Source of the DNA: an uncultured Gemmatimonadales bacterium
GTDB taxonomy: Bacteria > Gemmatimonadota > Gemmatimonadetes > Gemmatimonadales > GWC2-71-9
Assembly: GCA_963795085.1 (NCBI GenBank)
Contig: CAWCFX010000003.1
Span: 64,001-128,000 of the forward strand
Direction of reading: 5' to 3'
Length of the DNA stretch: 64,000 bases
The notes below the pieces were generated by a model. It was not told where the DNA came from, did not search any database, and saw only the letters and a program-made list of their open reading frames with translations. Numbering within the stretch: the stretch's first letter is position 1; each line of letters begins with the position of its first letter. Shown here piece by piece: positions 27,565 to 47,585 of this stretch. The position numbers were made by a program, and so were the translations under genes.

Positions 27565-27570
27565 GAGAAA

Positions 27571-29477: not shown

Positions 29478-29539
29478 TCCAGACCTCCGAATCGAAAATG
29501 TCTCTAGCCAACCCGCTTCCGGACCGGCGACAGGACCAA

Positions 29540-29614
29540 TGGGCGAAGAGGGATTCGAACCCCCGACATCCTGCGTGTAAGGCAGGCGCTCTGAACCAGC
29601 TGAGCTATTCGCCC
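29540..29614 (-). tRNA. tRNA-Val(TAC), CCA not fully encoded
   Basis: GGGCGAA acceptor stem, TAGCTCAG, CCTGC-CTTACAC-GCAGG anticodon arm, GGTTCGAAT T loop. Confidence 0.97.
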
Positions 29615-29622
29615 GTTGCTGG

Positions 29623-29815
29623 TTACAGGGCGATGCCCAACGGAAAGAGGACACAGTACCCCAGTACCAGCAGGGTAGCCGCAACCGTCGTGCCGCCGTC
29701 CTGCAGCAGCATATACCCTAACCCCAGCGAAAGGACCGCCGAGGCCAGGAGCAGATAGTTCTTCCGCCCCAGGAAGGGGGGGGGAGGGTGTTTGGGCCGG
29801 CGCTCGAGTAGCCAT
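29623..29815 (-). pseudogene. Small two-TM membrane protein (DUF3098-like), frameshifted at a C9 tract
   Basis: Removing one base from G9 (29776-29784) joins ATG 29815 to FLGRKNYLLLASAVLSLGLGYMLL...TVAATLLVLGYCVLFPLGIAL* (63 aa); no in-frame start precedes the TM frame. Confidence 0.75.
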
Positions 29816-29823
29816 AGACCTAG

Positions 29824-29853
29824 ACGTTAACGGGTTAAACTGGCCTCAGTCAA
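29824..29853 (-). promoter_or_regulatory. sigma70-type promoter for small gene / tRNA-Val / TPR unit
   Basis: TTGACT (29853-29848), 18-nt spacer, TAACGT (29829-29824), 8 nt before ATG 29815. Confidence 0.6.
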
Positions 29854-29875
29854 GGCGCTGCGACACACCGTCCCC

Positions 29876-30778
29876 TCATTGGGACAGGGGGCTCTCGCCC
29901 GGGTCAACGGGGTCATCGGGCGGGAGTTCCCACCCGTGGTTGAGGGCCAGCCGCCGGGGCCGGTCGGCCCGGCGGCGGACCCACCACGCCACCCCCACCA
30001 GCAAGCTTATCACCAGCCAGAACCCGCCCGCGCTGAGCCAGATCACGAAATTGTACTTTCGCTTGATGGTCCGCTGCCAGTCGGCCTCGAAAACAGTAAG
30101 CGGGAGCCCGGTCGATCCGAGGACGGCGGTTTCAAAGCTCTCTCCCCTGGAAAGTCGGCCCAGGAGATCATCCAGTGACTGGCCCGGATTGCGCCGCGCC
30201 AGTTCCAGGACGGCCGACATGGCCAGCGTGTAGGCCTTCTCCGCCGCGTTGGCGTTGGCCCGCAGGCTGCCGTCGAGGTCCCGGAAGCCGGGGAAGTCTC
30301 GCCTTAACACGATCCAGCTCAGCCGGAAGGCGTCCATCCGGTCCCATTCGCCGGAGGCAACGGCCGCGTAGCCTTCGTCGAACCATAGGGGGAGCCGCAC
30401 CCGCACCGCATCGTGCAGCACCAGGTGGGCCAGTTCATGTCGCAAGGTTTGTCGGGGATCCCCGCCGTCGGCGCGGATAATGACCGTCCGGCTGGAGGGG
30501 AACGCGAGGCCGGCGCCCCAGGATGGAGCGCGGTTGCCGGACATCCGGCGCATCGCGGCCGCATCCGGGACCACGACCAGCCGGATCCGGCCGGCGCTTC
30601 GGCGGCCCAGCCCCATCCATTCAGCGGGACGGTCGGCCGCCTCGGCCAGCGCCAGCGCCAGCCGGGATTCCGATGGCCACGCCACCACGCTGACGTCGCC
30701 GACGTGGATGATCGAGGCCAGCGTGTCCTGGGCCGGCAGCGCCGCGGGACCGGCGAGGGCGAGCAGGAGCGCGATCAG
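29876..30778 (-). CDS. Membrane-anchored peptidase MA-clan (HExxH) protein
   Basis: LRHELAH...PLWFDEGYA, C-terminal TM; signal-peptide-like segment in frame from CTG 30778 (first canonical start is GTG 30688). Confidence 0.78.
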   Translation of the reverse strand: MIALLLALAGPAALPAQDTLASIIHVGDVSVVAWPSESRLALALAEAADRPAEWMGLGRRSAGRIRLVVVPDAAAMRRMSGNRAPSWGAGLAFPSSRTVIIRADGGDPRQTLRHELAHLVLHDAVRVRLPLWFDEGYAAVASGEWDRMDAFRLSWIVLRRDFPGFRDLDGSLRANANAAEKAYTLAMSAVLELARRNPGQSLDDLLGRLSRGESFETAVLGSTGLPLTVFEADWQRTIKRKYNFVIWLSAGGFWLVISLLVGVAWWVRRRADRPRRLALNHGWELPPDDPVDPGESPLSQ

Positions 30779-31650
30779 GCCGGGGCGGCGGGCCGCGGCG
30801 GCTCTCCTCCGGCCGCGGTGGTGTCCAGCATTTCCTTGCAGCGTTTGCCCCAGGGGTTGAAGCGATTGGCTTTATAGCCGTCGTTCCATAGTTGCGCCGC
30901 CTGGTCCTGCTCGCCGGCGAACCAGTGGGCACGGCCCAGTTCGTAGTAGGCTTCGATCAGGTTGGGTCCCAGGTGGAGGGTCTTGCGGAAGAACACCTGC
31001 GCGTCCTCGAACATCTCCCTTTCCAGGTACACCAGCCCGAGGTAGAAATGGGCGTAGAGCGTGGCCTTGCGGTCGTTGTCCAGCCGAATGGCCTTTGACA
31101 GGTGCTCGATGGCTTCGCCGAAGATCCGCTTCTTGAGACAGATGTATCCCACGTTGATACGGGCGAGCGAGTTCGCCGGTTCCCGCATCAGGACCTTGCT
31201 GAACGTCGCGAGGGCCTCGTCATAATCTTCGTGCAGCATCTGGGCCCACCCCAGCAGCGACTGCGCCTGGACATCGCCCGGCGAGAGCGCCAGGGCCTTG
31301 CCCAGGGCCTGGATGGCTCCGGCGTGGTCGCCGAGGGAAATGAGACTCCACCCTTTTTCGATGTATGTCGAGGCACCCAGGTGATCCTGGTGGATGGCCG
31401 GGCGGGCCCCGGTAAACTGGGGCGCCTGGGCGGTGTCCGCATCCAGAGCGATCTGCTTGTAACGTTCGACCAGGGCGCGAATATCCTCCTTCAACCTGGT
31501 CAGGTCGGCCAGCGCGGCATCCACTTCCTTGAAGTAGGCGATGATCTCGCGCTTCAATGCCTCCCGGTCCACCGTGGTCGTCGCCCGGTCGATCCGGTCG
31601 GAGAGTTCCTGGTAGCGGGCCTTGAGGCCGTTGACCGACAGATCGCTCAT
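30775..31650 (-). CDS. Coiled-coil + TPR protein
   Basis: N-terminal heptad-rich helix, then ~5 TPRs (e.g. AHFYLGLVYLE, AYYELGRAHW). Confidence 0.85.
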   Translation of the reverse strand: MSDLSVNGLKARYQELSDRIDRATTTVDREALKREIIAYFKEVDAALADLTRLKEDIRALVERYKQIALDADTAQAPQFTGARPAIHQDHLGASTYIEKGWSLISLGDHAGAIQALGKALALSPGDVQAQSLLGWAQMLHEDYDEALATFSKVLMREPANSLARINVGYICLKKRIFGEAIEHLSKAIRLDNDRKATLYAHFYLGLVYLEREMFEDAQVFFRKTLHLGPNLIEAYYELGRAHWFAGEQDQAAQLWNDGYKANRFNPWGKRCKEMLDTTAAGGEPPRPAAPA

Positions 31651-32150
31651 GAAGTCCCGCTCCCGGAGGTTTTCTTCCCCCGGCTCGCCGGAGGGGCCAC
31701 GTCGGCGAGGGCAATCCGTTCGCTGGCGTTGAGCAGCCGCGCGGCCTGCAGCATGACAATGGTCCGGTTGGGGCGAGAGATAATGCCCGCGATATAATCC
31801 GCGGCCAGCCCCCTCACCATGGGCGGGGGGGTGGCGATGGTGGTGCTGTCCACCCGGGTCACCTCCAGCACCTGATCAACCAGCACACCGACTTTCCCCT
31901 CGTCCAGCCGGAGCACCATGATCCGCACATCCTCGGACAGATCGGCCTGGACCTGCAGCCGCTTGCGAAGGTCGACGACCGGGACCACGGCGTTGCCGTA
32001 CTGGACGACGCCTTCCAGGAAATCCGGGGCGTTGGGCAGCGAGGCCGGCCGCTCGTAGCGAAGGATGCGTTCGATCTGAAAGATATCGAGCGCGAACTCC
32101 TGGGAACCTACCCGGAAGATGACTACCTGGATTTCGTCTGCTGCCGTCAC
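31647..32150 (-). CDS. cheW: Chemotaxis adaptor CheW (third copy)
   Basis: QVVIFRVGSQEFALDI..IERI, LPNAPDFLEGV, VVPVVDLRKRL, GVLVDQV. Confidence 0.92.
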   Translation of the reverse strand: MTAADEIQVVIFRVGSQEFALDIFQIERILRYERPASLPNAPDFLEGVVQYGNAVVPVVDLRKRLQVQADLSEDVRIMVLRLDEGKVGVLVDQVLEVTRVDSTTIATPPPMVRGLAADYIAGIISRPNRTIVMLQAARLLNASERIALADVAPPASRGKKTSGSGTS

Positions 32151-32569
32151 GCGGGTGCCTCCGGAATGGTGAGACGATCGCCGACCCTGGCCAGGTCCAG
32201 CAGGGGCACCAGGCCGGTTGGAAGCCGGACCACGCCGGATGCCCACGGCAGCTTCTCCCCGGGAGGTGCCTCCATGGCCGTCCCCGCTACGATGGCTTCG
32301 GCATCGTCGACCTCGAGGCAGACTTCCCGGCCGCCCAGGGAGAGCACGACCGAGGTTCCCCCGGTATCCCCCGCGCCGGTGCCAATCAAGGTGCCCAGGG
32401 CGACCACCGGCAGGATGCGGCCCCGGGCGGCCGTCACTCCGCGGCAGGCAGCGGCGCTCGTCGGTACCGGATGCACCGTCCCCAGCGCCTCCACGGCGAC
32501 CACGAACTCGACCGGCAGACCCACCCGCCGGGACCCGAGGCGGACCAGGAGAAACTGCACCCCGCTCAT
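32147..32569 (-). CDS. cheW: Divergent CheW-like protein (second copy)
   Basis: [18 protein letters not shown]...[19 protein letters not shown]. Confidence 0.8.
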
Positions 32570-33633
32570 TGGCGAGCCATCCGGGCCAGGACATCAGTGA
32601 CCCGCCGCGCCAGCAGGCCCAGCGGCAGGACGTGGTCCACGCCTCCCGCCTGCACCGCCGCGTTGGGCATCCCGTAGACCGTGGACGTGGAGCGATCCTG
32701 GGCCAGTCCGCATCCGCCCGCATCGTGAATGGCTCGAAGCCCCACCGCGCCATCCCGGCCCAGCCCGGTCAGCACCACGCCGACGGTGGCCGGGCCATAG
32801 GTATCCGCGACGGAACGAAAGAGCGGATCGGCGGCGGGCCGAACCCCCCAGACCGCAGGAGACTGGTCCAGTACGATGACCGGCCCGCCTTCGCGCATTT
32901 CCACTCTCATATGATAATCGCCCGGCGCCACGAAGGCGGTGTCCGCCTGGAGGGGCGCACCGTCCCACGCTTCCACGACGGAGAGCCGGCTCTGTCCATC
33001 CAGCCGTTCGGCCAGTCCGCGGGTAAACGCCGCCGGCATGTGCTGGACGATAAGAATCGCGGCACCCTGCCCCGGCGCCAGCTGGGGCACCACCTCGGCC
33101 AGCGCGCGAGGCCCGCCGGTCGAGGCGGCGATCGCAACGCAGCGGCCGGCGAGCCCCGCGGCGACCAGATCGCGCCGCCCCCGCTGGGGAGGCCGGGCCA
33201 GCACCGGGATCCTGGAGACATCCGCCACCGCCGCCGCGCGGAGGGCCTGCAGCAGCCGGGGACCGAGCCGTTGGAGACCCTCCCGGCTGGGGCGCTGTTC
33301 CTTGTCGACAATCTCCACCGCGCCCAGTTCCAGCGCCCGGATCGCGCCGCTGCTGCCGGCTCCCGCGTGCGCGCTTACCACGACGATGGGGCGCGGAATT
33401 TCCGACATGATGTACCCGATCGCCGCCGGGCCATCCAGTTCCGGCATGTCGAGGTCCATCGTGATCAGGTCGGGAAGGTGCTGGTGCACCTTCTGGAGGC
33501 CATCGTGGCCGTTGCGGGCGGTGGCGGTGACCAGGAACTCACCCGAGGAATTGATGATCTCCGTCAGCACCTGGCGGACCAGGGCGCTGTCGTCGACCAC
33601 CAGGACCCGGAGGACTCTAGAGTCGGTGTTCAC
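32566..33633 (-). CDS. cheB: Protein-glutamate methylesterase CheB (REC + methylesterase)
   Basis: VDDS, TMDLDMP receiver; ASTGGP, VQHMP, TGLGRDG catalytic S-H-D. Confidence 0.96.
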
Positions 33634-34108
33634 TCTGATTGGCCGCTGACCGCACCACGACGGCCCCGTCGGACGGGTAAAACCAGACGGAGCGACCCGA
33701 CTCCCCGCCGACCAGCTCGCCGATGATCGGCACCCCAAGCTGGTTCAGCACGTCCCGGGTGGCCACCACGTTGCGCTCGCCCATCTGGATCGACCCGGGG
33801 GGGGACAGCGCCGCGAACAGGCTGGCCCCGCCGACCAGCCGGGCGCTCACCCGGCGGGGGACCGCACCGAGACCGGTGAGCCGGTCCAGGAGCGCCGGCA
33901 CCGCCCCCTGCGGGGTCTTGGCGGGATTGTCATCCTTCCGCACCAGTGAGCGGGAGGGCAACATGATGTGGGCCATGCCTCCCACCTTCTTGACCGGATC
34001 GTAGAGCACGATCGCGACGCAACTGCCGAGCCCGTAGGTCACCAGCACTTCGCCGCTCACGCCGGTATTCAGGTCGGCGACCCGGACGATGATCTCGCGG
34101 CCCGTCAT
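33617..34108 (-). CDS. cheD: Chemoreceptor glutamine deamidase CheD
   Basis: [10 protein letters not shown]...GGMAHIMLP (catalytic Cys/His), [19 protein letters not shown]. Confidence 0.95.
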
Positions 34109-34926
34109 GCCGGCCGCCGATAGACGCGCTCCCGGGCGTCCACCAGCTCGAGCCGGTCACGCATGGGCCCGAGAATCGTTTCCACCTTGCCCAGCACCAG
34201 GATTCCGCCGGGACGCAGCGATTCGGTAAACAGGGTAAAGAGCCGTTCCTGCATGGCCCGGTCGAAGTAGATCAGCACGTTGCGGCAAACGATGAGGTCG
34301 TAGGGAGCATGGCGGGGAGTATCCCGGGTCAGGTCCAGCCGGTTGACGTGGACCACCCGCCGAATCGGATCGGTAACGAGGCGGCTGCCCGGATCGGCCG
34401 GTTCAGTGTACCGGTCGATGTACTCTTCCGGCGCCTCGCTGAAGGCGCCCAGCGGATAGGCCCCGATGCGGGCCCGGTCGAGGCTGACCCGGTCGATGTC
34501 GGTCGCGTCGATGGCCAGCCGGTGCATCCATTCCGGGTGCCCCGCCTTGAGCGCGACTTCCGCAAACAGCATCGCCAGGGAGTACGGCTCCTCGCCGCTG
34601 GCGCATCCGGCGCTCCAGACCCGGAGCACGCGGCCGGCGTCCCGCCACAGCCCGGCTACGACGTCCTGCTGCAGCCGCTGCCACAGTTCGATGTTGCGGA
34701 AGAACTTGGTGACGTTGATGGTGAGCACATCGGAAAGCTTCTGCAGTTCGTCCGGCGTGCGCTCCAGGATGGCGAGATACTCGTCGTAGGTCGCCACGTT
34801 GTGGGCCCGCATCCGGACCGCGATGCGGCGCTTGAGGCAGCGCGGCTTGTATGCCTCGGTGGAGAGGCCGGCGACTTCGCTGATACGGCGGGTCAACTGG
34901 GCAAAGCTCGCATCGTCCGTGGTCAT
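34105..34926 (-). CDS. cheR: Protein-glutamate O-methyltransferase CheR
   Basis: TINVTKFFRN, WSAGCASGEEPYS, ATDID, CRNVLIYF. Confidence 0.96.
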   Translation of the reverse strand: MTTDDASFAQLTRRISEVAGLSTEAYKPRCLKRRIAVRMRAHNVATYDEYLAILERTPDELQKLSDVLTINVTKFFRNIELWQRLQQDVVAGLWRDAGRVLRVWSAGCASGEEPYSLAMLFAEVALKAGHPEWMHRLAIDATDIDRVSLDRARIGAYPLGAFSEAPEEYIDRYTEPADPGSRLVTDPIRRVVHVNRLDLTRDTPRHAPYDLIVCRNVLIYFDRAMQERLFTLFTESLRPGGILVLGKVETILGPMRDRLELVDARERVYRRPA

Positions 34927-36545
34927 GACGCGACGTTCCCCAGGGTTTCCAGATTGGTCCGGGCCAGCTGGTGCCCGGGGTTCAGCACCGTCGCCTGCTG
35001 CCACCAGGCGCGGGCCCGCTCCTGGTCCCGACGGCGAAAGGCGATATTGCCCATCTTGAAATAGAGGTCGTCACCCAGGTCGGGATTGAGTTTGGCGGCC
35101 CGCTCGTAGGCATCGAGAGCCTCGTCGTACCGGCCGGCGCGGTACAGCAGGTCGCCCAGGTTCTTGGATATCTGGGAGTACGACGGCTCCTCCGCCAGCG
35201 CCGATCGGGCCATGACCTCGGCGCCGGCCAGGTCGCCGGTGAGCTCGAGCAGCACCGCCAGGTTATTGCGAATGACGGCGTTCCCGGGGTGGGCCTGGAC
35301 ACCTTCCTGCGCGGTGCGCACCGCGCCGCCGAGGTCGTCCGCGCCGGCCGCCGCCAGCGACGCGGCCCAGAACCAGGTGGCCGGCGGTGGCCGCTCCCCC
35401 CAGACCTCGCGGGCCCGGGCCAGCCGGGCCACCGCCACCCCCGGGTCGCCCCGCTTGAGGGCGGCAATGCCCCAGCTCAGCATGTACCGGGCATCGTCGC
35501 GGGCCCGGCTCACCGCGTCGGCGTAGGCGGCTTCCGCGTCGTCGAGCCGTCCCATCTGCTCCAGCGCGAAGCCCAGATTGTGCAGCACCGAGGGCCGGGC
35601 TCCCCCCAGGTCGGCCGCCTGCCGCAGGCAGGACACCGCCTCGGGCCAGCGGGCTTGCCGGAGAGCGATCAGGCCCAGGTAGAACGCGGCGCTGGGTTCC
35701 CGGGGCCGCAGTTCCGCCACCCGGCGGAACTCCCGCAACGCTTCGTCCAGCATTCCGGTCTTGTAGAAAGCGATCCCCAGGTTCCGGTGCTCGTCCACCC
35801 GGCCTTCGGGCGCCTGGGGTGCCGGGTTCGGCACCGAGGACCCGGTGCGGTGGGCAAACCCGGCCGTGATCAGGCCGTACAGGGCCTTGCCGGCCTCGAA
35901 CTCAATCAGCCCGGAATCCTCGAAGACCTGCTGCACGTCCCGGGATCCATCGAGCAGGGGGAGGATCCGCTCCTGGCTCGGCGACAGCCGCACATCGGAC
36001 TGGGCCAGGTGCTCGCGGTCCAGCGCGAAGATCAGGTCCAGGGCCGGGATTTTTTTCTCGATCAGGCTCCACTCGTCCACCCGGCGGGCGCCTTCCAGGA
36101 GGAGCGACTCCGGGTTGATCTGGACCAGGAAGTCTTCCCGCTCAGGGCGGACCCCCGCCTCGAAGTTGAAAGTCCCCGAGTTCCAGGTGAAAAGGAAGTA
36201 CACCGCTTCCTCGATCTGGAGGCGCATGTATTCCTCCAGCTCTTCACGCGAGATCGCATTGATCTCGACCAGGATCTGACCCAGTTTGGTGTCCCGCTTC
36301 TCGGTCTGCATGTCCACCGCCTGTTGCAGCTGGGCGGCCGAGATGCGGTTGTTCTTCACCAGGATGTCGCCCAGCCGGTCCCGGCGGTTGACGATCGAGG
36401 CGTAGCAGATCTTGCCCAGGTCGAAGTAGATATAGCCGAAGTTGTGGCGGTCGGCGACAGCGAGCAGGCCGGTCTTGCGGCCCAGCGCCAGCAGCTGCAG
36501 CACGTCGGGCAGACTGGCTTCCTTGAGACTCCCCTTGATGGCCAT
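34923..36545 (-). CDS. DUF4388 (PATAN-like) + tandem MshEN-like motifs + TPR protein
   Basis: [61 protein letters not shown] repeats; ~8 C-terminal TPRs. Confidence 0.88.
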   Translation of the reverse strand: MAIKGSLKEASLPDVLQLLALGRKTGLLAVADRHNFGYIYFDLGKICYASIVNRRDRLGDILVKNNRISAAQLQQAVDMQTEKRDTKLGQILVEINAISREELEEYMRLQIEEAVYFLFTWNSGTFNFEAGVRPEREDFLVQINPESLLLEGARRVDEWSLIEKKIPALDLIFALDREHLAQSDVRLSPSQERILPLLDGSRDVQQVFEDSGLIEFEAGKALYGLITAGFAHRTGSSVPNPAPQAPEGRVDEHRNLGIAFYKTGMLDEALREFRRVAELRPREPSAAFYLGLIALRQARWPEAVSCLRQAADLGGARPSVLHNLGFALEQMGRLDDAEAAYADAVSRARDDARYMLSWGIAALKRGDPGVAVARLARAREVWGERPPPATWFWAASLAAAGADDLGGAVRTAQEGVQAHPGNAVIRNNLAVLLELTGDLAGAEVMARSALAEEPSYSQISKNLGDLLYRAGRYDEALDAYERAAKLNPDLGDDLYFKMGNIAFRRRDQERARAWWQQATVLNPGHQLARTNLETLGNVAS

Positions 36546-38475
36546 CAGCGCAGGTCCTCCACGATCCGGTCGGCGGAGTCGGGCCAGTCCCAGATCATCT
36601 TCTCGGAACTGCGAACCGTCCCGGAGGGCAAGGCGACCACGCCGCTCACCCGGTTCCCCCCGCTCCGCCTGGGGGGCTTGGGGGCGGACCTTCGAGGAGC
36701 TCGCGGGCGAGCGCGGCGGTGGGCGGCTCCTGGCGGGTTTCGGCGGCGCTCACCACCCGCTGCAGGATCCCCTGCAGCGTCCGCACGGAGTCCACCGACC
36801 GTCCCGCCAGGTATTCTGCCAGCTCCTGATTACCGCCGCCGGTGCCTTGCCGCACCAGACGCTCCAGCACCGCGACCCGCACTTCCCGCTCCGGGGGCGG
36901 CAGGTGCACCACCAACCCCCCCTCAAGGCGGCTGATCAGGCGGGGTTCCACTCCCGTCAGTTCACCCAGCGGCATCGGGCTGGTGAAGACCATCTGCCGG
37001 CCTTCCTTCAACAGGTGGTTGAAGAGCCAGAAGAACTCTTCCTGCGTCCGCTCCTTACTGTGCAGCAACTGGATATCGTCGAGCAGAAACGCGGTCACCC
37101 GGCGATACCGGGATCGCCACCAGGCCACCCGGTCGCGGTCGATGGCCGCGATGAGGTCGTCGACCAGCTCCTGGGTGTTGAGACAGGCCACCAGCGCCCC
37201 ATCGTGCCGGGCCAGCCCGTTGCCGATGGCGTGGAGGAGGTGGGTCTTGCCGGTCCCGCTGGGGCCGACCACCACCAGCGGGTTGTATTTGAGCGCCGGA
37301 TGCTCCACCGCCATGAGCGCCGCGCGTACCGCGATCCGGTTTCCGGGTCCCTCGGCGAAATCGGAGAGTTGCCAGAAAGGCGAGGGCCCCGGCGGCGGGG
37401 TCGCCCCTTCCCGGGCCCGGGCCAGCAGTGCGGCGGCATCATCGACCCGGTCGGGATCGCGGAACACCGCCTCGCCGCCGAGGCTGGCGTCGATGTCCAC
37501 GGCATCGGCCTCGATCGCGCGAAGCCGCTCGACATCCTCCGCAAACTGGCGCAGGGTGGCGTCGGGGTCGGCGGGGGAGTCCTGTTCCAGAAGCGCGCTC
37601 AGCCGGCTGACCCGGTACCCTTCGCCTTCCCACCGCATCACCGCCTCGGCCACCCGGGTGCGCCAGGCCTCCACCTGCTGGGCGACGGTGTGGGAAATCT
37701 CGGACAGGAAGCTGCCGAACTCGTCGGCCTCGGGGGGCGGCGGGGTGACGCCCAGGGGCACCCCGCCGAGCACCACCCGGGCCTGGGCCGGGTCGAGCGG
37801 CTGATCACTCACCGCCTGGAACGCGATCAACCGGTTGAGCGCGCCGATCAGCTCGCGCACGTTGGTGATCGCCAGCGATGCGACCGCTTCCAGCACACCG
37901 GCGGCGAATTCCGCCCGCCGCTCCTCGGCGTGGCGCCGCACGATGGCCACCCGGGTCTCGTAGTCGGGGGCGGCGATGTCGATCACCAGGCCGCCGGCGA
38001 ACCGCTGGATCAACCGCTCGTCCAGTGACTCGATGTCCGCCGGGCTCCGATCGCTGGTCAGGACGATCTGCCGGCTCGCGGTCTGCATCGCGTTGATGAC
38101 CCGGAGCAATTCGGCCTGCATCTCGCGCCGCCGGTCAAGGAACTGGACATCGTCGACCAGCAGCAGGTCCACCTCGGTGAATCGGCGGCGGTAGGCCTCG
38201 CCCTGGCCGGCGGCGACGGCGGCGTGGAAGGACTCCATGAAATCGTCGAGGGTGAGGTACTCGACGGCGAGGGCGGGATTGATCAGCCGCGCGGCATGAG
38301 CTACGGCCATGAGCAGGTGGGTCTTGCCCAGTCCGGGGCCGCTGTAGATGAACAGCGGGTTGTAGGCCACGCCGGGGCTCTCGGCCACCGACTTGGCGGC
38401 CGAGACCGCCAGCCGGTTGGCGGAGCCCACCACGAACGTATCGAAGCGGAACCGGGGATTCAGGTCCGCGGTCAC
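36545..38475 (-). CDS. DnaA/Hda-like protein with two tandem AAA+ modules, no DNA-binding domain; apparent 1-nt frameshift near the 3' end
   Basis: Module 1: [42 protein letters not shown]; module 2: [34 protein letters not shown]. Uncorrected ORF stops at 36646; shifted frame runs to a TGA overlapping the next ATG. Confidence 0.88.
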
Positions 38476-39074
38476 TTCAAGGCGCCCCCGGCGGCCAGTT
38501 TCTTGAGCACGGCCTCGCTGATGCCTTTCAAGGTTTCGAACACCCCGCCCCCGTGGAGCGCATCAGCGCTGAAACTCCGCACCATCCGGAAGTTGAGCGC
38601 ATCGTCCAGCTCGGCCTGGGTGAGAATGAGATCCCGCGGCAGGTCCTGCTTGTTGTACTGGAGGACGACCGGGAATGTCCGGACGTCGATACCCTGCTGC
38701 AGGAGATTACCGTGGAGGTTCTGCAGGCTCTCCAGGTTCTCTTCGAAGCGGCGGGCCTGGCTGTCGGCGACGAACACCACGCCGTCGGCGCCCTGCAGGA
38801 CCAGCTGCCGGGTCGCATTGTAGTAGACCTGCCCCGGCACCGTGTAGATCTGGAACCGGGTCTTGAACCCCGAGATCACGCCCAGGTCGATGGGCAGGAA
38901 ATCGAAGAACAGGGTGCGGTCCGTCTGGGTCGCGAGCGATACCATGCGGCCGCGCCGCGATTCCGGCACCCGGCCATACACGTACTGCAGGTTGGTCGTC
39001 TTGCCCGAGCGTCCCGGCCCGTAGTAGACGATCTTGCAGGTGATCTCGCGAGTGGTGAAGTTGACGAGTGACAT
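38472..39074 (-). CDS. mglA: MglA small Ras-like GTPase
   Basis: [50 protein letters not shown]. Confidence 0.97.
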
Positions 39075-39107
39075 TCAGTCCGGTCTCTGGGTCACGGCGG
39101 TCTCCGG

Positions 39108-39569
39108 CTATCGGCCGAACAGGGTGCGCAGACTGGTGTTGAGTTCCCGCTCGAAATCGGCGGCCAGCACCTCGCGGGGCTTGTCTTCTCCCGGGGTGGC
39201 GGCCTGCAGCGCCTGCACCAGCCGGCTGAAGAACAGCTGGACCAGTCCCAGGGTGGTTTCCGGCCCGAAGACCACCAGCCCGATCCAGGCCCCGCGCGGT
39301 GTGTCGAAGCGGGCCAGGAAGTGCCCCTGCCGGGTACCCTGGTGAACCATGATCGTGAAGGCCGGCCAGGTCATGGTGCGGGCCAGTTCCTGCGCGGAGG
39401 CGACGATGCCGGCCCCCAGCGCCGCCGCGGACATCACGTCCAGGGCCCGCGTGAACCCGTGCTGGGCAATGACCTGCCCCGACCCGGTCATGATCAGGAC
39501 CAGCCGGGCGGAGGACTCAGCCAGGAAATCATTGAGGGGCTCCACCACCCAGGGCTCGACTGAGCGCAT
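39108..39569 (-). CDS. mglB: MglB-like roadblock protein (putative GAP)
   Basis: Adjacent to mglA; AALGAG..AS..ELA, HQG, VVFG.ETTLGLV, C-terminal acidic helix DFERELNTSLRTLFG. Confidence 0.85.
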   Translation of the reverse strand: MRSVEPWVVEPLNDFLAESSARLVLIMTGSGQVIAQHGFTRALDVMSAAALGAGIVASAQELARTMTWPAFTIMVHQGTRQGHFLARFDTPRGAWIGLVVFGPETTLGLVQLFFSRLVQALQAATPGEDKPREVLAADFERELNTSLRTLFGR

Positions 39570-39916
39570 CAGGAGCCGCCCTCCGCGACCCGCGCCATTT
39601 CCAGCCGCGCCCGCCCCACGTTGACGCCCTTGTCCGCAATCACGATGAGCAGAAGCCCGGCGCCAGCCGGGGCCAGCAACAGCGCGCCACCGGTCGCCTG
39701 CAGGTGCAGAAACCCGGCGCTCCCGCCGCGGGCGGTCATCGCCGCCGTCTCCAGTTTCCGGGCCAGGCTGCTCGCCAACGCGGCCAGGGCGGCGCTCTCG
39801 ACGTCTTCCCGAATCGATTCCGCGACCACGATGCCGTCATCCCGGCTGGCCAGCATGGCCCCGCGGACGCCGGCGATGCCGGTGAGACGGTCCAGGGCCG
39901 CCGGTGTCAGGGTCAT
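39569..39916 (-). CDS. Roadblock/LC7 domain protein
   Basis: GVRGAMLASRDDGIVVA, ALAALASSL, LLLIVIADKGVNVGRARLEM. Confidence 0.88.
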   Translation of the reverse strand: MTLTPAALDRLTGIAGVRGAMLASRDDGIVVAESIREDVESAALAALASSLARKLETAAMTARGGSAGFLHLQATGGALLLAPAGAGLLLIVIADKGVNVGRARLEMARVAEGGS

Positions 39917-40791
39917 GCGCCTGCCTCCAACCAGCGGCGGGCGGCTTCCAGCGCCCGCCCGGTCCCGATGGCTACCCGTCCCATTGGCATCGAGGGATCC
40001 CGCATTACCATCAGGAGCGTTTCCGCCGTCGGCGGCACCAGGAAGTAGTTGGCGGCGCCGGTTTCCACCGCGATACTCCGCCATTCCCCGAGGTCCAGTA
40101 TCCGGGCCGCTCGAGCCGCCTCCCGGGAAACGCCCGCGAGTTCCGCCGCCACCTGGTCGGCGACGCCTTCCCCCAGTTCCCCCAGGGATCCGAGCAGGCG
40201 CATCCCGGCGGAATCCACCAGCAACAGTCCGTCGTCCTCCAGCACCGCATCGCCGGCCGCCGCGGGCCGGGGAGAGGAGGGCGGGATGGACGGTTGCTCG
40301 ACCTCGAAGCGAATGGCGGCCGGCGCGGCGGGAGTCCCGATCCGCGGGGGTTCCTCCGGGACCGGCGTGGCCGGCTCCGCTTCCCGCGCGGCGAGTTGGG
40401 CCCTGACCCGCTCGAGGGCGCTCTCCACCTGGGCATCGCCCGGCAAGTCCGCCGCCGCCGCATTCAGATGGCGAAGCGCCGACGGAAGGTCGCCCGCTTT
40501 CCAGAACAGGAAGGCGAGGCCCTTGTGAGCGCCGCCATGGGCTGGGTCCAGCCGGAGCGTCATGTCCCACTCATCGAACGCCCCTTCGAGGTCCTGGTGA
40601 TCCACCAGCACCCGGGCATACAGGTCGTGGGCCTCCGGGAGATTGGGATAGCGCACCAGCCCCTGGAGGGCCACCTTGGCGGCGGGCTCGAGCCGGCCGG
40701 CCTGGCGCAGGGCTTCCCCCAGCCGGAGAAACACCAGGCTGGTGGAATCGGCGGCCAGTTCGGCGGTCATCCGGCGGATGTCGTCAGTCAC
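39913..40791 (-). CDS. TPR + Pro-rich linker + C-terminal roadblock-like fusion protein
   Basis: N-terminal TPRs (SLVFLRLGEALRQAG...), PEEPP linker, C-terminal GLLLVDSAG...VAAELAG...LGEWRSIAVE...LLMVM. Confidence 0.78.
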   Translation of the reverse strand: MTDDIRRMTAELAADSTSLVFLRLGEALRQAGRLEPAAKVALQGLVRYPNLPEAHDLYARVLVDHQDLEGAFDEWDMTLRLDPAHGGAHKGLAFLFWKAGDLPSALRHLNAAAADLPGDAQVESALERVRAQLAAREAEPATPVPEEPPRIGTPAAPAAIRFEVEQPSIPPSSPRPAAAGDAVLEDDGLLLVDSAGMRLLGSLGELGEGVADQVAAELAGVSREAARAARILDLGEWRSIAVETGAANYFLVPPTAETLLMVMRDPSMPMGRVAIGTGRALEAARRWLEAGA

Positions 40792-41929
40792 CCGGCCCTC
40801 GCAGTGCCTGGTCCAGAGTCGCGACCGCTTCTCGCACCGCCCGGACCGTGGCGGAATGCGCCGCCTCTTCGGGCGGCATGCCGGCGGTGGCGTTCCAGCG
40901 GTCGCAGGCGTCCGTGGCCTCGCGGAAGCGACCCTGGGCGGCCAGGCAGAGGCCCCACAACCGCCAGGCGGGGATAAAATCCGGGTCCAGCTGGAGCGCC
41001 CGGTGAATCGCGGTCCCGGCCTCGGCGTAGCGGCTGCTTCGCAGCAGCGTCCGCCCCAGCACGACATGGGCCAGCGGCTGGTCGGGATAGTGGGTCGCGG
41101 CTTCCTCCGCGATCTGGCGCGCGACATCGGTTTCCCCGTTGAACAGCTCGTTCTCCGCCCGGCTGATCATGATGGCCAGTTCCCTCCCGCCAGGCTGCTC
41201 CCGGGGGTGCTGGGCCGGGTCCTCGAGCTGGATGATGCCGGCGCTGGCCAGCCCGAAGAGAGTCTTGGCGACCTCGAACTCGGAGCGCACCAGCGCCAGC
41301 GAAATACCCCGTACGTCCTGGGCTCCGTCGATCGCCGCCAGCACTTCCCACTCGAACGGGATCAGGTCCAGCGGCGCCTCGGACGAGGGGAGGGCCAGCC
41401 GTGGCAGGATGCCGAGGTGAGGAATCTTGGTTTCGATGCGCGACCACTCGTCGATCCGGCGTGCCGCTTCCATGACCAGCGCCTCGGTGGTGATCCGGAT
41501 ATCCGCCTCGGCGGGAGACTCGGCCACTTCGCCTTCCTCGAATGAGAAGTAGCCCTCCGCCCAGCTCAGCAATTCGAAAATGACTTCCTCGACCTGGGAA
41601 CGGACCTGCCGGTCCAGTTCACGCCGGGTGATGGAGCCCATGGCGATCAGGATCTCACCCAGCCGGCGGGGGTCGCCATTCTGCTGCATGGCCCGGGAAC
41701 GGGTCAGGTCCTCTTCCGAGATCTTGCCGGCCCGAAGCAGGAGGCCACCCAGCGGGTGCGGGTTGCTGCGGATCTCGGCGCCAATCACGGCGCCCTTCTC
41801 GAAAAACACCATCCCCGCGTTCTGGCGGATCTCGGAGCGCACCCTGAGCACCCCGGTCTTCCGGCTCAGGTCCAGCAGCTGGAAGACATCGTGGATGCCC
41901 AGTTCGCGGAGAGGGCCTTCGATCGCCAC
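40784..41929 (-). CDS. DUF4388 + tandem MshEN-like motifs + TPR protein (second copy)
   Basis: AIEGPLRELGIHDVFQLL..SRKTG.L, LLSWAEGYFSF, LVMEAARRIDEW; PLGGLLL/RLGEILI repeats; C-terminal TPRs. Confidence 0.87.
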   Translation of the reverse strand: MAIEGPLRELGIHDVFQLLDLSRKTGVLRVRSEIRQNAGMVFFEKGAVIGAEIRSNPHPLGGLLLRAGKISEEDLTRSRAMQQNGDPRRLGEILIAMGSITRRELDRQVRSQVEEVIFELLSWAEGYFSFEEGEVAESPAEADIRITTEALVMEAARRIDEWSRIETKIPHLGILPRLALPSSEAPLDLIPFEWEVLAAIDGAQDVRGISLALVRSEFEVAKTLFGLASAGIIQLEDPAQHPREQPGGRELAIMISRAENELFNGETDVARQIAEEAATHYPDQPLAHVVLGRTLLRSSRYAEAGTAIHRALQLDPDFIPAWRLWGLCLAAQGRFREATDACDRWNATAGMPPEEAAHSATVRAVREAVATLDQALRGPGD

Positions 41930-41930
41930 G

Positions 41931-44627
41931 TCAGGATGCCCTGGACACGAGAATGCGTTCCAGGTCACGGGCCGACCGTGCCTCGTTCCTTGCCAGCTGC
42001 GCGAAGGAGGAGGCCGGGTCGGCCTGGACCACTTTTTCCCACAGCTGCAGCGCCTGGTGATAGCGGCGCATCCGGGCCAGCGCGACCCCCCCGTAATACA
42101 ATGCCCCGGTGCAGTCCGGCGCGAACTTGAGGATCCGGCTGAATGCTTCCAGCGCCCGTTCCGGGCGGCCATCGTCGATCAGGGTGCGGCCCAGCAGCTG
42201 CAGCGCTTCGAGGTCGTAGGGATCGTGAATCAGGAGCGAGACCAGGACATCCGTGGCGGCCGGTCGCGCCTCGGTCCGCCGCAGCAGGTCGGCCAGCGCC
42301 AGCCCGGCTTCCACGTAGGTGGGCAGCAGATCGAGCGCCCGTTCATAGGCCGCGCGGGCGCCGGTCCAGTTCTCCCGTTTCTCTTCCAGCGCTCCCAGTT
42401 CACACCAGACCTGGGCCAGCGACCCGTCCAACTGGAGCGCGCCCTGGTAGGCCTCGATGGCGGCGGCGGTTTCGCCCAGCCGCGCGGCGATGTTCCCCTG
42501 CAGCTGCAGCAGGTCGGGCCGGCCGGGAGCCCGGGCCTGGGCCTCCCGGGCCAGGTCCATGGCACCGACCGGGTTGCCCGCGGCCAGCCGGGTGCGCGCG
42601 GCGGCGACGAGCACCTCCACGTTGTCCCGGCAGCGCGGGATCATCGATTCCACGATGGATGCCGCTTCGCTTGCGCGGCCCAGGGCGAGCAGCGCCCGGA
42701 CTTCGCCCAGGGCCGCCCCGTCGTTGCTCCCCAGCTCCTTGCGAGCCTCGCGGTACCGTTCCAGCGCTTCGCCATGCAGGCCTCGCCGGGCGAAGATATG
42801 TCCGGCCAGCACCGCCGCCTCGGCGGGCGAGGCTCCCCGCCCGAGGGCCCGGTCCAGTTCGGCGGAGGCCCGCTCCAGCAACCCCTTGGCCACGCACTCG
42901 CGCGCCAGGGCCAGCGGATCTTCGCCGGTCGGCCCCGCCGTGGCGGGGGCCGGGACGGCGGGCGCGAGTTCCCGAAAGACCTGATCCAGGAGGCGCTGAT
43001 CGAACGTGAAATCCTCGCCCAGTTCCTCGGTGACGACATCAGCTGAAATCTCCGGAACGATGGCGATGGTCGGGTCTTCGTACTGGAGGTCGATCGTCAG
43101 CGAGTACTTCTGGGGAACATAGAACGGCTCCAGTTCCAGCGCCCGCTTGGTTTCCCGGAGAGCTCCATCGAACTCGCCCAGCTGGCTCAGGGTGAAACTC
43201 AGGTTGTAATGGGCCGACGCGCTCTCGGGATCGGATTCGACGGCCCGGGCGAAGGCATTGCGCGCATCGGGAAAGCGCTTGAGTTCAGTGAGAACCAGCC
43301 CGATCCCATTCCACGCGATGGCGTTGCCCTCCGACTGGGCCAGGACCTGCCGGTACGCCTCCAGGGAGAGTTGCAGCCGGCGCCGCTGCAGGAGCAGCAG
43401 CCCCAGGTTCAGCTGGGCCGTGATGAGGTCGCGCCTGCAGCGGAGGGCCTGGTGAAAGGATTCCTGGGCATCGTCCGAGCCGGTGTCACCGCTCTGCAGG
43501 ACCCCCAGGTTGTTCCAGCTGAGGGCATAGTTGGGATCAAGGGCGACCGCTTTGCGATAGGCGGCCGTGGCTTCCTCCCGGCGGCCGGCCTGGTGCAGGC
43601 AGACGCCGCGCTCGTTTTCCAGCTTGGGGGAGTCGGCGAACTCGGCCACCAGTCGATCATACAACTCCAGCGCCGCGCCCAGGTCCCGGCGCAGGAGGTG
43701 CACCTCGGCCATGGCCTGGAGCGTCAGGCGCCGGTCCTCCCCGCTCTCCAGGGCCAGCCGGTACTCGCGCAGCGCTTCGACATAATAGCCCTTCTGCCGG
43801 AACGCGAGGCCGAGATTGTAATGCGCCAGCGTGGATCCGCCGGCCAGGGATGGCCGCCGCAGTTGGTCGCTGCCTTCGGCGATGACCCGGGCGCCTCCGG
43901 TCCTGCGCCGGAGCGACAGGTTAGTATGGGCCCGGGCGAAGGTGGGATTGAGCGCGATGGCCCGCTTGGTCGCCGCCCGGGCCGCCTCGTGCTGGCCCAA
44001 ATCGCCGTACAGGAACGCCAGCAGATAGTGGGCGTCGGCGTTGTCCGGGTTGAGTCCCACCGCCTCCTGCAGGATGCTCCGGGCCTGGTCGTTGAGGCCG
44101 CGGTTGTACAGGGCTTCCCCGTAGTAGAACAGGGCCAGCGAGCTTTCCGGGTCCAGGTCCCGGGCCTCGCCGAACCGGTCGCAGGCCTCTTCCAGGTGGC
44201 CACTGGCCTTGAGCGCGAGGCCGAGCTGAATCAGGGCAGCCACGTCGCCGGGGGACCGCGCGAGCAGGGCTTCGAACTCCCGGACGGCGTCTTCGTGGTG
44301 GCCCAGCGACGCGTAGGTGCGGGCCAACTCCCACCGGGCATCCCGGTCGTCGGGAGCCCGGCGCACCCGCTCGTGCAGTTCCGCCACCCGGCGATCGTAG
44401 TACCCGGTGTTGCGGTAGGCGACCTCCAGGTTGGCCTGGGCCACCTGCATCTTGGGATCGAGTTCCAGCGCCCGGGAAAACGCGGCGATGGCCTCGGCGA
44501 CCAGGCCTTTCTGGTGGTAGAGGACGCCCAGGTTGTTATGGGCGCCGGCGTCGGAAGGATCGATCCGGCGGGCAAAAGAACGCAGGACCGCGAGGTCGCG
44601 TTCCGAGAGGACCGAGCCGCCGGACAT
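41931..44627 (-). CDS. Large cytoplasmic TPR-repeat protein (898 aa)
   Basis: Many canonical TPRs (AHNNLGVLY, AHYNLGLAF, SWNNLGVL, AWNGIGLVL); no signal peptide. Confidence 0.9.
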   Translation of the reverse strand: MSGGSVLSERDLAVLRSFARRIDPSDAGAHNNLGVLYHQKGLVAEAIAAFSRALELDPKMQVAQANLEVAYRNTGYYDRRVAELHERVRRAPDDRDARWELARTYASLGHHEDAVREFEALLARSPGDVAALIQLGLALKASGHLEEACDRFGEARDLDPESSLALFYYGEALYNRGLNDQARSILQEAVGLNPDNADAHYLLAFLYGDLGQHEAARAATKRAIALNPTFARAHTNLSLRRRTGGARVIAEGSDQLRRPSLAGGSTLAHYNLGLAFRQKGYYVEALREYRLALESGEDRRLTLQAMAEVHLLRRDLGAALELYDRLVAEFADSPKLENERGVCLHQAGRREEATAAYRKAVALDPNYALSWNNLGVLQSGDTGSDDAQESFHQALRCRRDLITAQLNLGLLLLQRRRLQLSLEAYRQVLAQSEGNAIAWNGIGLVLTELKRFPDARNAFARAVESDPESASAHYNLSFTLSQLGEFDGALRETKRALELEPFYVPQKYSLTIDLQYEDPTIAIVPEISADVVTEELGEDFTFDQRLLDQVFRELAPAVPAPATAGPTGEDPLALARECVAKGLLERASAELDRALGRGASPAEAAVLAGHIFARRGLHGEALERYREARKELGSNDGAALGEVRALLALGRASEAASIVESMIPRCRDNVEVLVAAARTRLAAGNPVGAMDLAREAQARAPGRPDLLQLQGNIAARLGETAAAIEAYQGALQLDGSLAQVWCELGALEEKRENWTGARAAYERALDLLPTYVEAGLALADLLRRTEARPAATDVLVSLLIHDPYDLEALQLLGRTLIDDGRPERALEAFSRILKFAPDCTGALYYGGVALARMRRYHQALQLWEKVVQADPASSFAQLARNEARSARDLERILVSRAS

Positions 44628-44634
44628 TCGGCCG

Positions 44635-45255
44635 TCAGGTCAGCCGGATGGCGTCGAACACCGCGCGGAGCGACGCGAGGTCGGGCATCAGCAGGAAGTG
44701 GCCGCGGAGACCCTTGGCTTCATCGGTGAACTGGAATTCGGTTTCCAGGCAGAAGACAAAGTCCCGTTCGTACCCGAAGTTGAGGTACGTCGTGGTGAGG
44801 ATCGCCCCGGAGAGGTCGATCACCAGCGAGGGCACCGAGGGAAGCAGCATCATCCCCATGAAATCGCTCAGCGCGGTGAGGTAGGCGCTGCTCAGAATGT
44901 TGCCGGCCTCCTTGAGCCCGGATTCTTCCATGATGCCGAATTCGACGGTGGTGCCGATGGGGCGCCGCAGCAGGATGTCGCACAGCATCCGGGCCGAGTC
45001 CCGCGGAAAAATCACCATGGTCCGGCCGGTCAGATCGCCCATCATGTGCATGAGCACCGCGGCGATCACGTCGTCCGGCTTGCCCAGGACGTCGGCGACC
45101 TGTTCCAGCCGGGTGATGTTCACCTCGGGCACCGTGATCATGATCTTGCGGCTGGTCATCTGCGACAACGCCGTCGCGGCGTGACCGGCCCCGATATTGG
45201 CCACCTCGCGGAGGGCGTCCAGTTGCAGCGCCTGCAAGTTCCGTATGTCGTCCAT
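44635..45255 (-). CDS. cheC: CheY-P phosphatase CheC
   Basis: DALREVANIGAGHAATALS and SGLKEAGNIL (two ExxN sites); GGAG RBS before ATG 45255 (alternative start 45267). Confidence 0.95.
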   Translation of the reverse strand: MDDIRNLQALQLDALREVANIGAGHAATALSQMTSRKIMITVPEVNITRLEQVADVLGKPDDVIAAVLMHMMGDLTGRTMVIFPRDSARMLCDILLRRPIGTTVEFGIMEESGLKEAGNILSSAYLTALSDFMGMMLLPSVPSLVIDLSGAILTTTYLNFGYERDFVFCLETEFQFTDEAKGLRGHFLLMPDLASLRAVFDAIRLT

Positions 45256-45293
45256 TGAATACTCCATTCCGGAAGCCCGCCAACCCACCCCTG

Positions 45294-45319
45294 CCCGGTA
45301 CTCAGTCCTGAGTACCGGG
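45294..45319. promoter_or_regulatory. Perfect 12-bp inverted repeat between cheA and cheC
   Basis: CCCGGTACTCAG-tc-CTGAGTACCGGG, no U tract. Confidence 0.5.
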
Positions 45320-45322
45320 TGC

Positions 45323-47218: not shown

Positions 47219-47222
47219 CCGG

Positions 47223-47585
47223 TCAGCCGAGGACGCGCTGGACGGCCTCGAGGACGCGGGAGGGCTGGAACGGCTTCACAACAAAGTCCTTGGCGCCGGC
47301 CTGGATGGCCTCGACGACCAGGGCCTGCTGCCCCATCGCGCTGCACATGAGGACCTTGGCATCGGGATCGGTCCGGCAGATTTCCCGGACGGCGTCGATC
47401 CCGCCCATATCGGGCATGACGATATCCATGGTGACCAGGTCCGGTTTGAGCTGCCGGTATTTCTCCACCGCCTGCCGGCCGGTTTCGGCTTCACCGACCA
47501 CCTCGAACCCTGCCTGGGCGAGAATGTCGCTGATCATCGTGCGCATGAAGATCGCGTCGTCGCATACCAGAACCGTATGACCCAC
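47223..47585 (-). CDS. cheY: Chemotaxis response regulator CheY (Bacillus/Thermotoga-type)
   Basis: CDDAIFMR, TMDIVMP, MCSAMGQQ, GAKDFVVKPF. Confidence 0.95.
   Translation of the reverse strand: MGHTVLVCDDAIFMRTMISDILAQAGFEVVGEAETGRQAVEKYRQLKPDLVTMDIVMPDMGGIDAVREICRTDPDAKVLMCSAMGQQALVVEAIQAGAKDFVVKPFQPSRVLEAVQRVLG

Follow-up and report, generated by a model that had tools for sequence, protein, structure and literature searches.

A DnaA-type double ATPase with a predicted tether to a PATAN-TPR protein in a Che/MglAB gene cluster of Gemmatimonadota

Closest described systems

To our knowledge, nearly all described uses of the DnaA ATPase fold lie in replication, where it occurs in DnaA, in Hda and in related helicase loaders. 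Here we describe a gene from an uncultured Gemmatimonadales bacterium whose product joins two DnaA-type AAA+ modules in one chain (hereafter the double ATPase). The gene lies on the reverse strand of a 64,000-nucleotide stretch of DNA (hereafter the window; contig CAWCFX010000003.1, positions 64,001 to 128,000, assembly GCA_963795085.1), between mglA and a gene for a protein that fuses a PATAN (DUF4388) domain to tetratricopeptide repeats (PATAN-TPR), and positions below are those of the window unless a contig is named. We lean, with some reserve, towards the view that this protein is a non-replicative, DnaA-derived nucleotide switch or scaffold whose tether would be PATAN-TPR, the hub of a polarity module of Che and MglAB proteins, with its ATPase biochemistry, oligomerisation and binding all being predictions.

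The closest structural relatives are the domain III structures of DnaA (8BV3, 2Z4R, 8BTG, 3R8F, 1L8Q and 2HCB), with which the double ATPase shares Pfam domain PF00308, present twice, as well as Walker A and B motifs, box VII arginines and sensor II. Unlike DnaA, it has no domains I, II or IV, carries two modules per chain together with an added helical linker and a C-terminal tail with a predicted docking role, and is encoded away from dnaN. Its modules form clades separate from DnaA, and the box VII tryptophan has been lost from both, with glycine in its place. Hda and HdaA are likewise relatives of DnaA that consist of domain III without a DNA-binding domain, and they show that the fold can serve regulation. 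Hda is a single module with an N-terminal clamp-binding motif, whereas the double ATPase has two modules, scores under the Hda cut-offs and has a different partner gene. Type II AAA+ proteins such as p97/Cdc48 and Rix7 also have two AAA+ modules per chain, but whole-chain Foldseek comparison gave a template-modelling score (TM) of ~0.3 and a root-mean-square deviation (rmsd) of ~20 Å, so the likeness is one of module count only. The modules of these proteins, which are of the classic clade, assemble into hexamer rings that stack on each other, whereas those of the double ATPase are of the initiator clade and have 130 residues of linker between them.

Comparable structures also exist for the partner protein. 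Residues 247-539 of PATAN-TPR model as an eight-repeat superhelix like the peptide-binding TPR superhelices of O-GlcNAc transferase (OGT; 1W3B/6EOU) and the consensus eight-repeat protein 8CHY. It differs from these in being fused to PATAN and in its predicted ligand, which would be the C-terminal end of the AAA+ protein whose gene comes just before its own; the structure matches included no solved complex of such an ATPase tail with PATAN-TPR. In PatA-type regulators PATAN is fused to a receiver domain, whereas here it is fused to TPRs, in a cluster with its own Che set. The main text of a survey of small GTPases (PMC4316618) places MglA genes sometimes near PATAN genes and Group 1 MglA in Gemmatimonadetes; the word "replication" is absent from that main text. 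Excerpts of two further papers describe MglA of Myxococcus as acting via the TPR protein SgmX (PMC7519303, PMC7668184), and the excerpts of the PATAN, MglA and SgmX literature contain no mention of a DnaA-like ATPase. A full-text literature search found no paper on a DnaA-derived double ATPase. What is new here is the frameshift and the tail behind it, the identification of PATAN-TPR as constant partner, with a predicted interface, the occurrence of variants that have no module 2, the extent of the distribution and the phylogeny of the modules.

Domain make-up and evolution of the double ATPase

The double ATPase opens directly at DnaA domain III, as a preliminary description of this locus had proposed. 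The domain-III start motif ([16 protein letters not shown]) spans residues 5-20, and the protein begins at position 102 of the NCBIfam DnaA profile TIGR00362 and at position 1 of PF00308, with no domain I or II before it. All motifs quoted in that description were found in the translation: SGPGLGKT (Walker A, with S45 in place of the first glycine), LLVDD, QRFAGG and NVREL in module 1, and [23 protein letters not shown] in module 2. A Pfam scan returned Bac_DnaA (PF00308) in two stretches (E 4.2e-94), and the 18 Pfam families matched at E ≤ 0.01 included neither Bac_DnaA_C (PF08299) nor an N-terminal DnaA domain. PF08299 was also absent from the 25 Pfam families listed for 55 family members, the rarest listed family being found in 4 members. 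TIGR00362 likewise matched in two stretches, which cover profile positions 102-335 of 437 and hence domain III only. The two tandem initiator-clade modules, and the lack of domains I and IV, were therefore as first described.

Structure prediction agrees with this domain assignment. The AlphaFold2 (AF2) model, built on an alignment of the 55 family members, has a mean predicted local distance difference test (pLDDT) of 90.1 and a predicted TM (pTM) of 0.52. Its best Foldseek match in the PDB was domain III of Bacillus subtilis DnaA (8bv3_A; TM on target 0.95, rmsd 1.4 Å, 42% identity), followed by another isolated DnaA domain III (2z4r_A; TM on target 0.91), with full DnaA chains ranking after these. 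Module 1 is ~43% identical to the host's own DnaA, and module 2 is ~36-41% identical to canonical DnaA from many phyla among the matches listed. Between the modules, a disordered stretch (residues 239-253) precedes the conserved helical linker domain, which is specific to the family and for which we found no Pfam match, no Atlas match and no PDB sequence match other than two chance matches at E 0.31. As for the serine that opens the first Walker A motif, the 55 members carry G in 28, S in 14 and A in 13 cases; judged from this alignment, S45 is a family trait and not a defect.

The host genome (3.89 Mb, 6 contigs, 93% complete) has a canonical initiator elsewhere. Its one other PF00308 match is a 466-aa frame on contig C4, which also carries the genome's sole PF08299 match; this dnaA (C4:208554-209525) has dnaN (C4:207905-208258) directly downstream on the same strand, whereas the double ATPase is encoded on contig C3. 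From its domains and this separate dnaA-dnaN locus, we take the double ATPase not to be the replication initiator. Database annotation gives another impression. The double ATPase passes the TIGR00362 DnaA equivalog (475 bits; cut-off 343.9), which is misleading because the score sums two domain-III stretches, and relatives are listed as "DnaA/Hda family protein" (e.g., at 82% identity in a Gemmatimonadota bacterium) or, because this cut-off is passed, as "chromosomal replication initiator protein". As a result, genomes of this group appear to have two dnaA genes, and initiator names among these relatives should be read with this in mind.

Both modules of the window protein have intact catalytic motifs (Table 1), which are kept to different degrees across the 55 diverse members. 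In module 1, the Walker A lysine is kept in 54/55, the first Walker B aspartate in 55/55, the arginine finger in 36/55 and the sensor II arginine in 50/55; the corresponding counts for module 2 are 47/55, 49/55, 45/55 and 40/55. The ATP site of module 1 and the finger of module 2 are thus the best-kept pair, which would fit a composite site inside the protein. Outside the ATP site, a residue comparison with 82 canonical DnaA domains showed that the invariant helix after Walker B is gone from module 1, as is its counterpart of E. coli R227, whereas module 2 retains both. The R227 equivalent is kept in 0.89 of module 2 rows and 0.16 of module 1 rows; the K-E-R-x-Q-E-E-F-F...F-N helix, invariant in canonical DnaA, is retained in module 2, and the F-F-H-T-F-N helix is kept in at most 0.16 of module 1. 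For these residues we follow the E. coli numbering and the roles assigned to them in DnaA.

For the phylogeny of the modules we used a quick maximum-likelihood tree, unrooted, of 91 rows (25 of module 1, 19 of module 2, 15 Gemmatimonadota DnaA and 32 other DnaA, one per family or title, chosen from 67). Module 1, module 2 and host DnaA formed one clade each (Shimodaira-Hasegawa-like approximate likelihood ratio test 98, 99 and 99), with neither module nested in host DnaA. The subtrees of the two modules mirror each other, and each module lies on a long branch that falls outside every DnaA sampled. The tree, as far as such a reconstruction goes, shows an old and vertically inherited tandem; it does not show the source of the tandem.

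To follow the family beyond this locus, we used the helical linker as query, for which a positive control found 5/5 divergent members. The linker was found in 199/301 sampled Gemmatimonadota genomes, and by family (positive/scored, families numbered f1 to f12) in f1 121/125, f2 55/70, f3 3/3, f4 4/6, f5 1/1, f7 10/47 and f8 4/4, with 0/44 in f6 and f9-f12 combined. All linker-positive genomes are labelled "same class" or closer. These tallies include the unpublished genomes G018, G082, G201, G176 and G120, none of which is among the loci studied in detail. The linker was not found in 151 genomes of the phylum of G319 (Thermoanaerobaculia), in 151 of that of G320 (Deltaproteobacteria bacterium) or in 5 further single genomes. 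A scan with an alignment of the linker and module 2 gives no census; its best 80 loci comprised 67 canonical DnaA of other phyla and 13 Gemmatimonadota loci, and among these 80 only the 13 covered the linker (the pattern used being the Walker A region).

Within the order, the tandem gene is present in 39/41 relatives; in genome G008 it is seen only as a fragment at a contig end, and in G031 and G035 the only match is canonical DnaA. An exhaustive search of 1.84 billion representatives returned a diverse family with identities down to ~34%, of which one divergent representative (P0141) belongs to Longimicrobiales. It also returned shorter relatives of 390-450 aa with module 1, linker and tail but without module 2, and in genome G301 the protein is reduced to ~340 aa, which comprise module 1, some of the linker and a tail that retains a W-x-x-D-W-P core. 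The tandem architecture set out in the preliminary description is thus not universal, since variants without module 2 (G077, G301) occur in the same gene context.

Several other arrangements of the DnaA module were seen among the representatives. P0201 (1876 aa) and P0206 (1990 aa) carry an MshEN domain (PF05157) at the N-terminus, and more than 1000 residues separate their two Bac_DnaA modules; on their domain content they are a second instance in which DnaA ATPase modules are linked with cyclic di-GMP (c-di-GMP) signalling, here in a single chain. P0198 (673 aa) is a tandem of two Bac_DnaA modules that retains Bac_DnaA_C, a different kind of double DnaA. P0263 (1356 aa) has one C-terminal Bac_DnaA module (1019-1178) and a zinc-ribbon-like C-terminus, with four weak linker matches within its N-terminal 1000 residues.

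The C-terminal tail and its predicted PATAN-TPR partner

The span first given for the gene (36545 to 38475) was correct at its upper end; its lower end is reached only across a 1-nt frameshift. The interval measures 1931 nt, that is, 644 codons less one base. Past the frameshift, the window holds a tail motif (E-K-x-x-W-x-W-P...R-x-x-E-E) that is complete, open and undecayed, but out of frame with the ATPase open reading frame (ORF) by this indel, and the TGA of the tail frame (36545-36547) overlaps the ATG of the downstream PATAN-TPR gene. The tail is in frame at the C-terminus in 24/24 orthologous loci examined, and four genomes of the same genus have open ATPase frames of 656-658 aa. A further 119 best homologues, among the matches listed, are 641-678 aa long, and eight aligned homologues extend ~34 residues beyond the stop of the window, ending in the conserved motif. 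The tail persists in the variants that have no module 2 (G077, G301).

As the tail is undecayed and the orthologues are in frame, we judge that the tail is probably out of frame here through an assembly error in a homopolymer, a typical spot for such errors, and not through real truncation. It is possible, if rather doubtful, that the frameshift is real in this strain, in which case the cell would make a tail-less 609-aa protein uncoupled from PATAN-TPR (a recent loss of function) or would reach the tail by ribosomal slippage. The assembly does have one base fewer in the C5/C6 run, and no public reads reach the site to contradict it: no sequencing run contained more than 0.18 of the sampled words, and the contigs of X1, X2, X5 and X12, aligned at 85% likeness, leave 36636-36683 uncovered. 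Against a real frameshift stand the in-frame orthologues and same-genus frames and the intact motif, open as far as the conserved TGA/ATG overlap, while slippage is disfavoured by our reading of the sequence, which gave no recognisable slippery heptamer at the site.

The partner of the tail is suggested by gene order. The PATAN-TPR gene stands directly after the ATPase gene in 24/24 loci from 6 families, overlapping it or within ~10 nt, and does so in the window as well. Within the order, 15/15 loci (three families) have mglA, the ATPase gene and PATAN-TPR side by side, followed by cheD in 13/15, cheB in 12/15 and cheR in 11/15; nine further loci come from other families of the class, and mglB-mglA is upstream in four of them. 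Conserved placement in a Che/Mgl signalling cluster, as first described, is therefore seen in these 15/15 loci of the order and, as regards mglB-mglA, in 4/9 of the others. The coupling to mglA that was also proposed fared less evenly. In the window the GTG start of the double ATPase does overlap the TGA of mglA (aaGTGAcc), as stated, and mglA is upstream in 19/24 loci, but it is not constant, since five f7 loci have no mgl or che genes within ~8 kb. There the order is yggS-divIVA-ileS...ATPase, PATAN-TPR, Peptidase_MA_2 and a sigma-54 response regulator. Given these loci and the 24/24 count for PATAN-TPR, the constant unit is the ATPase with PATAN-TPR.

The AF2 model of PATAN-TPR (pLDDT 88.8) has a PATAN domain at residues 1-236 with a helical insert (58-119), followed by the TPR superhelix, and its closest structures are 9qhb, 8chy, 6eou and 1w3b (consensus TPR superhelices and the TPR of OGT). 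We predicted the complex of PATAN-TPR with the 45-aa tail from alignments of the 24 loci, with three controls. The scores were 0.78, 0.79 and 0.88 (median 0.79), and the best control scored 0.00. The mark used was reached by 116/157 solved complexes and 2/215 mismatched pairs, which is a rough guide, the alignments being our own. At least 47% of contacts recur between runs, and the pLDDT of the partner is at least 53. Tail residues 19-44 are predicted to contact TPR residues 258-494 on the concave face, including the conserved asparagines N323, N427, N428 and N462. These contacts resemble the asparagine ladder of OGT. Contact positions are somewhat more conserved than other TPR positions (0.66 vs 0.57; 98/10000 random draws reach this), a comparison that is a weak point because residues of the concave face are also structural. 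Taken together, the tail probably docks in the TPR groove of PATAN-TPR; the complex model supports binding without showing it.

Two MshEN-like motifs of 24 residues each lie in tandem in the PATAN insert (residues 57-80 and 87-110; 57-110 at window positions 36206-36376). The protein passes NCBIfam NF053729 ("c-di-GMP-binding domain, MshE-related") with 44.2 bits against a cut-off of 38, and judged by this profile PATAN-TPR may be a c-di-GMP receptor. In genomes G031, G035 and G095, which have no ATPase, the PATAN-TPR match skips residues 55-108.

Gene neighbourhood, proposed role and alternatives

The features of the locus are collected in Table 1. On the reverse strand the genes run cheY, cheA, cheC, the 898-aa TPR protein, the second PATAN-TPR protein, a TPR protein, the second Roadblock protein, mglB, mglA, the double ATPase, PATAN-TPR, cheR, cheD, cheB and the CheW-domain protein, and then a TPR gene, Peptidase_MA_2 and another TPR gene before mraW-ftsI-murE-murF-mraY...ftsW-murG. 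The only two PATAN proteins of the genome are both in this cluster. The ORFs scanned with Pfam in the window include no chemoreceptor domain, despite the cheA, cheY, cheC, cheR, cheD, cheB and CheW-domain genes at 31647-47585.

Table 1. Features of the double-ATPase locus, in window positions
Feature	Position	Strand	Details and basis
Tandem DnaA-domain-III protein as called	36646..38475	-	609 aa, GTG start, premature stop 36646-36648 through frameshift; ORF list and translation
Module 1	37762..38475	-	Residues 1-238, AAA+ core and lid; Walker A K51, Walker B D108/D109, box VII R154/R158, sensor II R207
Helical linker domain	37405..37716	-	Residues 254-357; AF2 helices 254-284, 290-297, 304-328, 341-357
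Module 2	36685..37368	-	Residues 370-597, second DnaA-type AAA+ core and lid; K410, D466/D467, R512/R516, R565
Frameshift zone	36671..36687	-	C5 run 36680-36684 and C6 run 36671-36676; one base fewer than orthologues (alignment)
Conserved C-terminal tail, 45 codons, other frame	36548..36682	-	Ends ...[21 protein letters not shown]
PATAN(DUF4388)-TPR protein, 540 aa	34923..36545	-	Pfam DUF4388 5.8e-37 and TPRs; neighbour of the ATPase
mglA, Ras-like small GTPase, 200 aa	38472..39074	-	Pfam; orthologues 62-85% identical directly upstream of ATPase in 19/24 loci
mglB, Roadblock/LC7 GTPase-activating protein, 153 aa	39108..39569	-	NCBIfam NF052242 MglB below cut-off; Pfam Robl_LC7 weak; syntenic
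Second Roadblock/LC7 protein	39569..40570	-	Domain at residues 226-312; Pfam Robl_LC7 2.2e-08
Second PATAN(DUF4388)-TPR protein	40784..42172	-	Pfam
898-aa TPR protein	41931..44627	-	Pfam; syntenic in 15/15 loci of the order
cheC 44635-45288, cheA 45323-47218, cheY 47223-47585	44635..47585	-	Pfam
cheR 34105-35004, cheD 33617-34108, cheB 32566-33738, cheW-domain protein 31647-32753	31647..35004	-	Pfam
Peptidase_MA_2 protein	29876..30688	-	Pfam; f7 homologue directly after PATAN-TPR gene

The called start of the second Roadblock/LC7 ORF is probably over-extended. A second frameshift was considered from the overlapping ORFs 39913-41127 and 40784-42172 and rejected: two genes are likewise present at this place in an orthologous locus (L006), and the overlap is therefore due to over-extended starts. 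The signalling cluster sits on the reverse strand between yggS-ileS-lspA and mraW, ftsI, murE, murF, mraY, ftsW and murG (13814-30688 and 49336-55406). As the ATPase/PATAN-TPR pair of f7 likewise follows yggS-divIVA-ileS, this placement among division genes is old. The Peptidase_MA_2 neighbour is conserved as well (L102:6117-7184, L107:1247-2323) and in the window comes after the che genes and a TPR gene. Two further ORFs, at 15152-17164 (-; 670 aa) and 53804-54706 (+; 300 aa), have high third-position GC and no Pfam match at E ≤ 1e-6; the former lies within the cell-wall cluster, at a place where one might look for murD.

In the role that we propose, the C-terminal tail would dock in the concave groove of the TPR superhelix and so tether the ATPase to PATAN-TPR, and nucleotide binding and hydrolysis by the DnaA-type modules would alter the assembly state of this hub. 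As happens in DnaA filaments, a module would present its arginine finger to the ATP site of another module, either in the same protein or in a second copy. The hub in this order would work with MglA/MglB and the Che pathway, probably setting cell polarity or the activity of a pilus-type motor. ATP-dependent oligomerisation, the link to polarity or pili and the role of MglA are what we infer from this context. The preliminary description had suggested a repurposed ATPase scaffold in the signalling complex, and this part of it fits the gene context and the predicted tail-TPR docking. Given the MshEN-like motifs and the NF053729 pass, the hub may also integrate c-di-GMP input beside those of MglA and Che, with the ATPase setting its assembly state. 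In Synechocystis, PATAN is reported in a preprint (10.1101/2021.06.11.447907) to be the output domain by which the pilus motor proteins PilB1 and PilC are bound, and the present genome has eight PilB/PilT/GspE-type ATPase matches above cut-off.

Several observations weigh against this proposal. Genome G031 has mglA, a 245-nt gap and a shorter PATAN-TPR but no ATPase, and G095 has only cheC, PATAN-TPR and cheR, with neither ATPase nor mglA; as both keep PATAN-TPR without the ATPase, the latter is dispensable for the hub. The module 1 arginine finger, as noted, is kept in just 36 of the 55 members. In f7 and some other families module 2 matches only to ~residue 160/234 and apparently has no lid. 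The case for a composite ATP site comes from conservation, because AF2 leaves the arrangement of the modules unfixed (pTM 0.52). The complex score is the model's own confidence, and TPR-peptide complexes are common in the PDB, so that the pass may partly reflect general likeness. The protein as sequenced in this assembly would lack its tether, the tail being out of frame. Finally, the DnaA-invariant residues that module 2 keeps outside the ATP site would fit a role directed at DNA or at DnaA too.

The last point bears on two other readings. The preliminary description had offered an Hda-like or DnaA-directed regulator as an alternative, which would co-assemble with true DnaA via AAA+ faces and link replication initiation to the state of polarity or chemosensing. 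Both modules of the window protein have box VII arginines and sensor II, the locus is flanked by ileS/lspA and by the mraW-ftsI division cluster, and the DnaA-like surface retained in module 2 (the R227 equivalent and the long helix described above) keeps this reading alive. Nonetheless, we consider it unlikely. The double ATPase scored 159.8 with the Hda profile TIGR03420, below the cut-off of 194.8, and 39-52 against cut-offs of 268-300 with other Hda/HdaA models (PRK08084, 52 vs 268). Four patterns of the clamp-binding consensus were unmatched in the 609 aa, which is a weak test. The gene is unlinked to dnaA, dnaN or any origin, its constant partner is PATAN-TPR, and the family has been lost from G031 and G035, where a canonical DnaA match remains. 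Both modules also lie outside all sampled DnaAs on long branches, and module 1 has lost the surface that module 2 retains. Alternatively, module 2 might bind single-stranded DNA (ssDNA) or RNA while the tail tethers PATAN-TPR, so that the nucleoid would serve as a positioning surface. The basic/aromatic helix after Walker B, invariant in canonical DnaA and kept in module 2, would suit such an anchor; we presume its ssDNA-contact role from the DnaA-ssDNA structure 3R8F, itself among the Foldseek matches. We regard this as very unlikely given that domain IV is lacking, that variants without module 2 occur in the same context and that module 2 is truncated in several families.

A helper ATPase of a mobile element, of the IstB/DnaC type, or a helicase loader would account for the Pfam match to IstB_IS21 (82 bits in two stretches). 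The dedicated profiles, however, were far from their cut-offs (NF038214 IstB 106.7 vs 200, DnaC 40 vs 357 and DnaI 37.9 vs 228), the phylogeny is vertical and no transposase was seen among the neighbourhood ORFs scanned with Pfam. As the chromosomal position is fixed across six families, the mobile-element helper is effectively refuted, and we give this reading hardly any credence. ZapE, an AFG1-like division ATPase, was also tried and rejected (NF040713, 28.9 vs a cut-off of 140). A more far-reaching version of the switch or scaffold that we favour is conceivable, and quite unlikely at present: the double ATPase would be the energy-consuming core of an unrecognised polarity machine, polymerising with ATP like a DnaA filament, with its tail carrying a c-di-GMP-sensing hub under MglA and Che input and module 2 touching ssDNA or DnaA. 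If this were true, pole identity or budding-type division would be coupled to the replication state of the chromosome.

What the locus presents is a DnaA fold that has been stripped of its DNA-binding parts, duplicated, given a tail with a predicted docking role, and kept for long across one bacterial class. If the proposed switch or scaffold is correct, it would be a new job for an initiator-type AAA+ module, in cell polarity, and would provide the poorly understood PATAN-TPR proteins with a first concrete partner and a testable interface.

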